Shown: one piece after another, positions 17,262-21,843 of the stretch
How the letters are laid out: the number at the start of each line of letters is the position of its first letter
How positions within the stretch are numbered: position 1 is the stretch's first letter
Notes under the pieces: generated by a model
What the model was told of the DNA's origin: nothing
The model's database searches: none
The model's input: the letters and a program-made list of their open reading frames with translations, nothing else
Translations under genes and position numbers: made by a program
Source of the DNA: Eledone cirrhosa
Lineage: Eukaryota
Assembly (NCBI GenBank): GCA_964016885.1
Contig: OZ024766.1
Location: 6,696,001 to 6,760,000 of the forward strand
Reading direction: 5' to 3'
DNA: 64,000 nucleotides

Positions 17262-17301
<40 letters not shown>

Positions 17302-17303
<2 letters not shown>

Positions 17304-17510
17304 CGAAGGAAATGTGGTAAGGAACCAGGTGGACCATAACGCACCAAAGTACTCAATACTTAGGGTAGTAGAGTGGGTAATAGGAACGAGTAGGACCCCG
17401 ACGGCTGAGCTCAAGCCGTTTCGACGGCTAATTCTGGACTAAACTTTTTAGTCCTGAATTAGCCGTCGAAACGGCTTGAGCTCAGCCGTCGGGGTCCTAC
17501 TCGTTCCTAT
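17302..17510. mobile_element. Fold-back mini-element family P1
   Basis: Same sequence as the 7565 copy with a longer inverted arm; (TA)n on both sides. Confidence 0.85.
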
Positions 17511-17526
17511 ATATATATATATATAT

Positions 17527-17917
17527 GTAAAAGGTAAACAGAAATAACAACACAATCGGTACAGTATATGGAAGGGATATATTAGGTTAACGCTTGATAC
17601 AGCAGGAAGATGGTCTTAACGTTTCGGACGCTAGTCCTTCATCAGAAAAAAAGAATGAGAAATAAGATAGATTGAGGGGACGGGCGGGATGGAATTGGAA
17701 AAAATGTCTTTAGATAAAAATAACAGGTTCATTCATGTTGACATCTCTTATTCCACCTGATACATCACCTCAATCTATTTTATTTCTTATCCTTTCTTCT
17801 GATGAAGGACTAGCGTCCGAAACGTTAAGACCCTCTTCCTGCTACATCAAGCGTTAACCTGATATATACCTTCCATATACTGTACTGATTGTGTTGTTAT
17901 TTCTGTTTACCTTTTAC
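17527..17917. mobile_element. Diverged inverted-repeat element (arms ~150 bp) with a hammerhead in each arm
   Basis: 17527-17677 is approximately the reverse complement of 17768-17917. Confidence 0.85.
17795..17830 (+). ncRNA. Minimal type I hammerhead lacking a stem III loop (mirror copy on minus strand 17614-17649)
   Basis: TCTT-CTGATGA-A-GGAC(TAGC)GTCC-GAAA-CG-TT-AAGA. Confidence 0.85.
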
Positions 17918-21661: not shown

Positions 21662-21843
21662 AAAAGAGTCAGGACCCCGACGGCGGAAGTCTGGCCGTTT
21701 CAACGTTTGGATCTAGCTTACGAAATGGCCGGAGCTCAGCCGTCGGGGTCCTCACTCTTTTCCTATTACCCACTCTACTACCCTAAATATTGAGTACTCT
21801 GGTGTGTTATGGTCCATAAGGTTTCTTACCACACGCTTTGTTT
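21662..21843. mobile_element. Fold-back family P1, diverged subfamily, opposite orientation
   Basis: AAAAGAGT.AGGACCCCGACGGC ... GCCGTCGGGGTCCT.ACTCTTTT then CCTATTACCCACTCTACTACCC. Confidence 0.8.

Follow-up and report, generated by a model that had tools for sequence, protein, structure and literature searches.

Penelope-like elements (PLEs) of the Hydra clade are described as carrying RWK and DKT motifs, a CxCx5C linker, and CxxC plus CxH motifs, and as inserting into (TA)n targets (Craig et al., 2021; PMC8557442). In its accessible portion, that paper lists as open questions how tandem and inverted PLE structures arise and what part the hammerhead plays; statements about the other papers cited here likewise refer to the accessible portion of each. 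Covariation to U3-A8 in the hammerhead core has been reported for the Cercyon PLEs of Schistosoma, with about 1300 matches (Cervera and De la Pena, 2014; PMC4209133). In Drosophila virilis, the terminal repeat of Penelope contains an internal promoter that includes an initiator (Schostak et al., 2008; PMC2377424), and the fly initiator is TCAGTT or TCAGTY-like (PMC10290830). In L1 elements, an extra G marks capped full-length inserts, that is, copying of the cap (PMC11702581). Metazoan non-LTR retrozymes are tandem units of 170-400 nt, each with a complete hammerhead (preprint 10.64898/2026.07.22.740005; PMC7229834). The clade, the one-sided tail, the inverted copy, the internal starts, and U3-A8 are in print already, and among the papers listed in searches of the literature outside subscription papers, none ties PLE inversions to twin priming or places a transcription start inside the hammerhead.

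The locus at 17302-17509 lies in a 64-kb window, which is the whole stretch of DNA that was analyzed, from a 3.0-Gb, microsatellite-rich host genome. It consists of a 130-nt palindrome with a 79-nt tail on one side only and is set in (TA)n (17264-17301 on the left and 17510-17527 on the right). Two arms stand head to head, a - strand arm from -44 to +97 and a + strand arm from about -44 to +18, where position 0 is the first base 3' of GUC, past the predicted cut. The sense of the element is the - strand, opposite to the reading in the first-pass annotation of this repeat (family P1), and the tail is the element's 3' end. On the - strand, the 79-nt tail (+19 to +97) occupies 17302-17380, and its end at 17302 is putative priming site 1. 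The tail arm continues with the stem I 3' strand and a linker to putative priming site 2 at +18 (17381-17399), with a segment containing GAAA (17422-17419), helix III with its palindromic loop, and GUC (17402-17400; whole segment 17400-17422), and with the helix II 3' strand and a remnant of loop II that ends at -44 (17423-17443). The cut on this arm is predicted between 17400 and 17399 (-), and the A (-41) of an initiator-like motif is 17440. The tail arm is identical to a full element at 140 of 142 positions. A junction of one non-parental base plus a T run (17444-17449) leads into the tail-less arm (17450-17509, +), in which A(-41) is 17450, GAAA is 17468-17471, GUC is 17488-17490, and the end is at +18. 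GUC thus ends at 17490 on the + strand and at 17400 on the - strand.

All eight P1 copies claimed in the window are present at their places. Besides 17302-17509, these are a subfamily B-type copy whose two arms diverge past the cut site (7566-7763, -), a diverged two-armed copy of subfamily C type (21663-21843, +; end approximate), a two-armed copy whose left arm is missing the sequence flanked by two 7-nt direct repeats (28019-28202, +), two-armed copies with a long A/T-run junction (37042-37270, -) and with a direct arm-to-arm join (41675-41868, -), two adjoining degenerate copies with GAAA altered or missing (48438-48687), and a single-arm copy of subfamily C type that starts with G plus A(-41) (59485-59625, +; end approximate). 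The half-motif of GAAA, stem III, and GUC that had been ascribed to these copies is found in most arms, with intact GAAA absent from 2 of 14 (48439 and 48664). The reported lack of CTGANGA was confirmed within 130 nt upstream of the matched arms (0/14), the variant core UUGANAA described below is likewise absent from the 130 nt examined upstream of the window arms (0/14), and none of the 14 arms has the 5' half of a type I hammerhead core in cis. The window also holds hammerhead-like motifs with the canonical core from other repeat families. An opposed pair with a CTGATGA...GAAA core lies at 17622-17645 (-) and 17799-17822 (+), and further motifs of several families lie at 34614-34638 (+), 36544-36572 (-), 36972-36994 (+), 39323-39345 (-), 39350-39372 (+), 41621-41648 (-), and 59731-59752 (-); some of these directly adjoin P1 copies in the same (TA)n. 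Among the 150 of 870 Rfam matches listed, there were only microRNA-like matches on microsatellites and one palindrome. A tRNA search found none, and repeat-finder output was dominated by microsatellites.

P1 almost certainly originates from a Hydra-clade PLE. Four of the first 30 main-subfamily loci extend upstream with shared sequence that ends in an endonuclease C-terminus, and ORF pieces (loci L143, L149, and L151) show an RT motif, YRDD, followed by an endonuclease motif, AYIG. Pfam returned no family for the ORF pieces (4/4), and the RT/GIY-YIG assignment is of motifs read by eye. The ORF bears the Hydra marks RWR, DKT, CxCx5C (CNCPDGSIC), CxxC (CNLC), and CxH (CKH/CRH), and the insertions show the traits of the clade, namely a (TA)n target, a pLTR, an inverted 5'-truncated copy, and a one-sided tail. 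The order in the parent is ORF, 3'UTR, full hammerhead, P1 segment, tail, 93 nt, and ATG (+190). Because the pLTR-hammerhead-P1-tail unit sits directly 5' of the ATG (15 of 29 ORF-start loci), P1 forms the front part of the 5'UTR, with both +97 and +18 at internal positions. Judged from its sequence, P1 is a hammerhead plus 5'UTR piece of a Hydra-clade PLE inserted in (TA)n. Identity with the metazoan non-LTR retrozymes was rejected, as P1 copies are dispersed, head to head, and without the core. At one place (G000:C20:16252917-16313041), four near-identical ORF-start copies lie 15-30 kb apart with shared flanks, likely as a segmental repeat.

Genome-wide, there are 6583 exact matches to a 40-nt piece of the main subfamily and 0 to its reversed control; the sibling subfamilies C and B have 666 and 680 matches, respectively, with 0 for their controls. 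Short copies stand to long arms at about 5:1 (80/96 short). The proposal that P1 comes from a retroelement and retains the 3' half of its type I hammerhead is supported, and long copies carry the whole motif. These copies had been expected to hold a stem I 5' strand plus CTGANGA; the strand is present, and the core is a U3-A8 variant, so that the expectation failed in its letter only. Because the core is UUGANAA, searches for CTGANGA miss the parent hammerhead. One such search upstream of the half-motif gave 55 matches; the ones inspected belonged to junctions or neighboring sequence and not to the parent.

The core of long arms reads UUGANAA (U3-A8) or, in one lineage, CUGANAA (C3·A8). Core position 8 is A in 6070 matches and another base in 110 (with slightly different search patterns), position 7 takes all four bases, position 10.2 takes three, and position 3 is U in 76 and C in 24 of 100 rows scored by eye. 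The U3-A8 arms conform to the type I core, whereas the 3-8 base pair is lacking in the C3·A8 lineage. A C3·A8 mismatch would be expected to impair the hammerhead. About two-thirds of main-subfamily long arms belong to this lineage (e.g., L083 and L278), which is linked to most of the short copies there. We rejected C3·A8 as a general cause of short copies: the counts are 61 short and 5 long against 4 and 7 (P = 8e-5), but short copies also predominate in subfamilies B and C, which have U3-A8. In a structure drawn by hand for 25 distinct but related arms, 87% of cells are paired (95, 89, and 87% for helices I, II, and III), and three pairs of helix II change on both sides among these related sequences. 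By predicted energy, another fold is preferred over the hammerhead (z -0.3; -19.7 against -24.6 kcal/mol); helix II alone is predicted at -9.7 kcal/mol, and loop III is palindromic, with dimerization predicted.

We plotted the upstream ends of the first 96 of the 100 listed main-subfamily matches, all of them tail-bearing arms on C1. The ends are clustered and not uniform, as the first-pass annotation had anticipated: 62 lie at -47 to -34, 10 at -2 to +1, 8 at -33 to -3, 1 at -48 to -130, and 15 further upstream. The main hotspot lies inside loop II, past helix II, and has a sharp upstream edge. Truncation had been placed 15-35 nt upstream of GAAA; the clustering stands, and its position is corrected to a hotspot 11-24 nt upstream (62/96) with a second peak at the cut site (10/96). 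The events also appear independent, as had been suggested, with 64 of 67 junctions distinct. The same hotspot is found in subfamilies B (18/30) and C (12/30), where ungapped extension undercounts old copies, and in subfamily C loop II differs with the initiator-like motif retained. Some arms reach -46 to -48, and some subfamily C arms reach -48 or further. By contrast, only 1 of 28 arms that run on into the ORF, not each necessarily through the whole of it, ends in the hotspot, compared to 62 of the 78 tail arms that reach -33 (P = 5e-13). Three arms at two loci, which begin within ≈220 nt downstream, do end in the hotspot.

Two further candidates for breakpoint features were discarded. A pile of ends at -381 (7/96) was taken as an alignment break at an indel, because the alignment of many long arms is interrupted near -389/-380 and then continues. 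We also rejected a splice acceptor at -40 or -35, as arms retain the would-be intron bases and share no common upstream exon. Another data set, which may derive from the sample used for the assembly, yielded contigs with loose ends located at -45, +20, and +99; these contigs are uninformative on transcription starts. At L307/L308 (G000:C1:27009638-27009929), tandem units from -44 to about +215 look like the outcome of a jump after repeated run-off at the hotspot. In a full element at L324, a short deletion coincides exactly with the hotspot (at about 1375-1390 in the oriented locus) and is possibly a template-jump scar.

The motif T(T/C)AGT(C/T) at the hotspot is kept in all three subfamilies while the loop diverges. 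It resembles the fly initiator, a type that may also be used by this group of animals. The motif is at the same time paired in the upper helix, whose last base is the main peak at -44, and because of this placement its conservation may be structural. No DPE-like motif was read from the sequence at +28 to +32. Where the base before A(-41) is non-parental (non-T), it is G in 49 of 100 rows compared to 14 of 100 before a -38 control (by eye; P = 1e-7). About 25 of these 49 G rows cannot derive from the partner arm and about 24 could, and the cases explained by neither the partner arm nor a parental variant number about 25 G, 5 C, and 3 A (by eye). Before A(-41) in subfamily B, there are 3531 matches with G versus 2468 with A or C, the second pattern having one more 3-of-4 letter, and in fetched loci G, C, and A occur 15, 17, and 6 times. 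The commonest main-subfamily class ends at -44 with an added T and not G (17/17); main-subfamily arms that end at -41 have G in only 2 of 7 cases, and a C or G just upstream of -44 is infrequent, with a mixed picture (274 matches). Taking these patterns together, we lean toward the view that the hotspot marks a capped transcription start at the A of T(T/C)AGT(C/T) in loop II. In a single arm at L064 (about 6950-6990), the 5'-terminal 13 nt, with G before A(-41), are repeated three times.

The second peak lies at the cut site. Ten of 96 arms start at -2 to +1, compared to 8 within the adjoining 31 positions (P = 7e-6), under a search pattern that rules out starts past +1. In 38 loci with an arm adjoining (TA)n, the start is precisely 0 in 17, either 0 or -1 in 5, and elsewhere in 16 (by eye). 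This peak probably records RNAs cut by the ribozyme in vivo, and a stall in helix III or C-to-T decay of -1 could contribute. A tail type linked to the C3·A8 core is found in 17 of 20 C3 long arms and in 8 of the 10 cut-site arms, and the latter count leaves room for cleavage in trans.

Most P1 insertions have two arms. An inverted arm lies near 67 of the 96 tail arms, and 49 of these 67 inverted arms end in the same hotspot. Exactly one arm is tailed in 84 of 91 pairs, and the outer ends are fixed at +97 and +18. Fourteen long two-armed loci, picked for having two cores, end at +97 and about +19. The first-pass annotation attributed the inverted copies to stalling or self-priming of reverse transcription in a strong stem II, by which the second arm would be a copy of the first. 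Such a route fits the haplotype common to both arms in 73 of 74 pairs and the recurrent -41 to -35 junction with a 6-nt loop, which occurs in 25/100 and about 45/100 rows (by eye) and resembles snap-back. R2 proteins do snap back, after full-length cDNA (PMC11371274), and this behavior also points to the end of the template. However, a snap-back copy cannot exceed its template, so that two cDNAs are needed at least where the tail-less arm is longer and holds sequence absent from the tail arm. This is the case in 17 of 67 short pairs, compared to 22 with the longer tail arm and 28 within 3 nt (threshold >3 nt), and in 8 of the 14 long pairs, compared to 6 with the longer tail arm, by up to kilobases. 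Moreover, the second arm ends at one fixed site, and the breakpoints lie beyond the lower helix. A stall would be expected at the base of that helix (-23), where only 4 of 96 arms end, yet 62 of the 78 arms reaching -33 copied the whole lower 3' strand before ending in the hotspot; helix II is modest at -9.7 kcal/mol, and on the ORF side the hotspot takes only the 1 arm in 28. Stalling with self-priming is therefore contradicted as the general route and quite improbable as the explanation of P1, and snap-back may explain a subset of insertions. Instead, the paired arms very probably reflect twin priming on one RNA type, as read from their ends and lengths. Arms from different RNAs were dropped as proof of twin priming, being seen in only 1 of 74 pairs, and a third priming site near -46 was dropped with only 7 loci. 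At L198 and at 7566-7763 in the window, the two arms of an insertion have different bases at subfamily-type positions, as though two RNAs had been copied.

On balance, we favor the interpretation that P1 copies are twin-primed 5'UTR pieces made by run-off at a capped start inside loop II of a PLE hammerhead. A (TA)n target would be cut, and reverse transcription would be primed from both target ends at two fixed 5'UTR sites, +97 and +18. The RT would run off the RNA 5' end, which would be the capped start within loop II, and end repair would join the two cDNAs head to head, accompanied by slippage along the T run. The 5' copy in such a transcript would contain the substrate half only, and the 3' copy a complete hammerhead; with the substrate half only, the 5' copy would be unable to cut itself. 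A single linear mRNA that starts at -41 predicts that most ORF-continuing arms end in the hotspot, against the observed 1/28, and long copies consequently need another template or a block confined to the first pass. In the proposed scheme, they would come from templates that lack the loop II end, such as a circle, a read-through transcript, or a template jump. A first-pass roadblock would account directly for the 62/78 tail-primed compared to the 1/28 ORF-side arms: the RNA would extend upstream, the ribozyme fold or an element protein would stop newly primed RT atop helix II, and later passes would be free. The main peak at the last base of the upper helix agrees with this reading, as do the protein-assisted ribozyme of the anole PLE and the use of unprocessed RNA as its main substrate in vitro (PMC11167929). 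The roadblock is nevertheless doubtful, because it leaves unexplained the excess of G before A(-41) and the sharp upstream edge (1/96 in -48 to -130), and because the same hotspot occurs in subfamily C despite its different loop and helix II is modest. Another reading makes P1 a self-propagating non-autonomous element with an internal promoter at -41, mobilized by PLE protein without involvement of the full-length mRNA. Both the fixed 5' end and the ORF-side result would follow, and short copies do prevail about 5:1 over long arms. We regard this reading as distinctly unlikely, since there is no master junction (64/67 distinct), short and long copies have subfamily haplotypes in common, and the 3' ends match internal sites of the parent.

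The first-pass annotation had also offered the half-motif as a substrate strand for a trans-acting catalytic half. Given a start site inside loop II, this alternative would become more plausible. One elaboration, which we consider unlikely, is a hammerhead split by design, in which the 5' substrate half and the 3' enzyme half of an mRNA would pair and cut off the capped leader. The resulting unit-length RNA would circularize and give rise to the long copies, and P1 copies would be aborted strong-stop products; alternatively, a sibling U3-A8 copy could supply the enzyme strand. Co-folding of the two halves into helices I-III is predicted at -25.9 kcal/mol, compared to -12.7 and -4.7 kcal/mol for the halves alone.

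Under our favored interpretation of run-off at a capped start, thousands of dead copies log the start, stop, and cut sites of one PLE family to the base. It predicts that capped transcripts start at -41, that both target strands prime synthesis, at +97 and +18, that RNA ends fall at the cut site, and that long copies use a second class of template. If the start truly lies inside the ribozyme, this would explain how the 5' end of a PLE transcript stays uncut while its 3' copy can cut. In addition, searches limited to CUGANGA overlook the ≈6000 core-bearing arms of this family.

Retroviral minus-strand strong-stop DNA is a short cDNA whose synthesis begins internally and stops at the RNA 5' end. 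P1 would resemble it as a short cDNA that reaches the 5' end of its RNA, and would differ in being target-primed without a tRNA primer. As in L1 twin priming, P1 has inverted arms that imply two primings and joining by end repair, with an extra G at run-off; unlike in L1, both primings would occur at fixed internal sites, with arms that cover the same stretch of RNA (PMC11702581). The green anole Poseidon element PAc likewise has AT-rich targets and two internal RT starts downstream of the hammerhead that set the tail, and both of its target strands are cut and extended, as proposed here (Frangieh et al., 2024; PMC11167929). In PAc, however, the ribozyme contains the ATG and the sites fall within the ORF, whereas here the sites are in the 5'UTR; in the accessible account no PAc reads ended at the cut site, where genomic arms pile up here. 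The D. virilis Penelope shares the internal promoter with an initiator, a putative feature here. Its start precedes by 46 bp an intron whose end is at helix I, and thus lies upstream of the ribozyme, in contrast to a start that would lie inside the ribozyme here with no DPE match (PMC2377424). The parent hammerhead agrees with those of other PLEs in being type I within pLTRs, with a long helix II with G10.1-C11.1, a palindromic loop III, opposite-strand pairs 100-700 bp apart, and U3-A8 covariation. It differs in its long, 6-bp helix III and its loop II of about 40 nt, and half-motifs ending in loop II are found here that the accessible account does not describe (PMC4209133). Finally, the element matches the Hydra clade in its C-terminal endonuclease, RWK-like, DKT, CxCx5C, and CxxC/CxH motifs, (TA)n targets, pLTR hammerhead, and inverted 5'-truncated copy with a tail at a single end. 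By contrast, its core is U3-A8 or C3·A8 where the clade's is called canonical, and its tail is 79 nt compared to 30-40; a breakpoint hotspot, a start site, and a cause of inversion are absent from the accessible description of the clade (PMC8557442).
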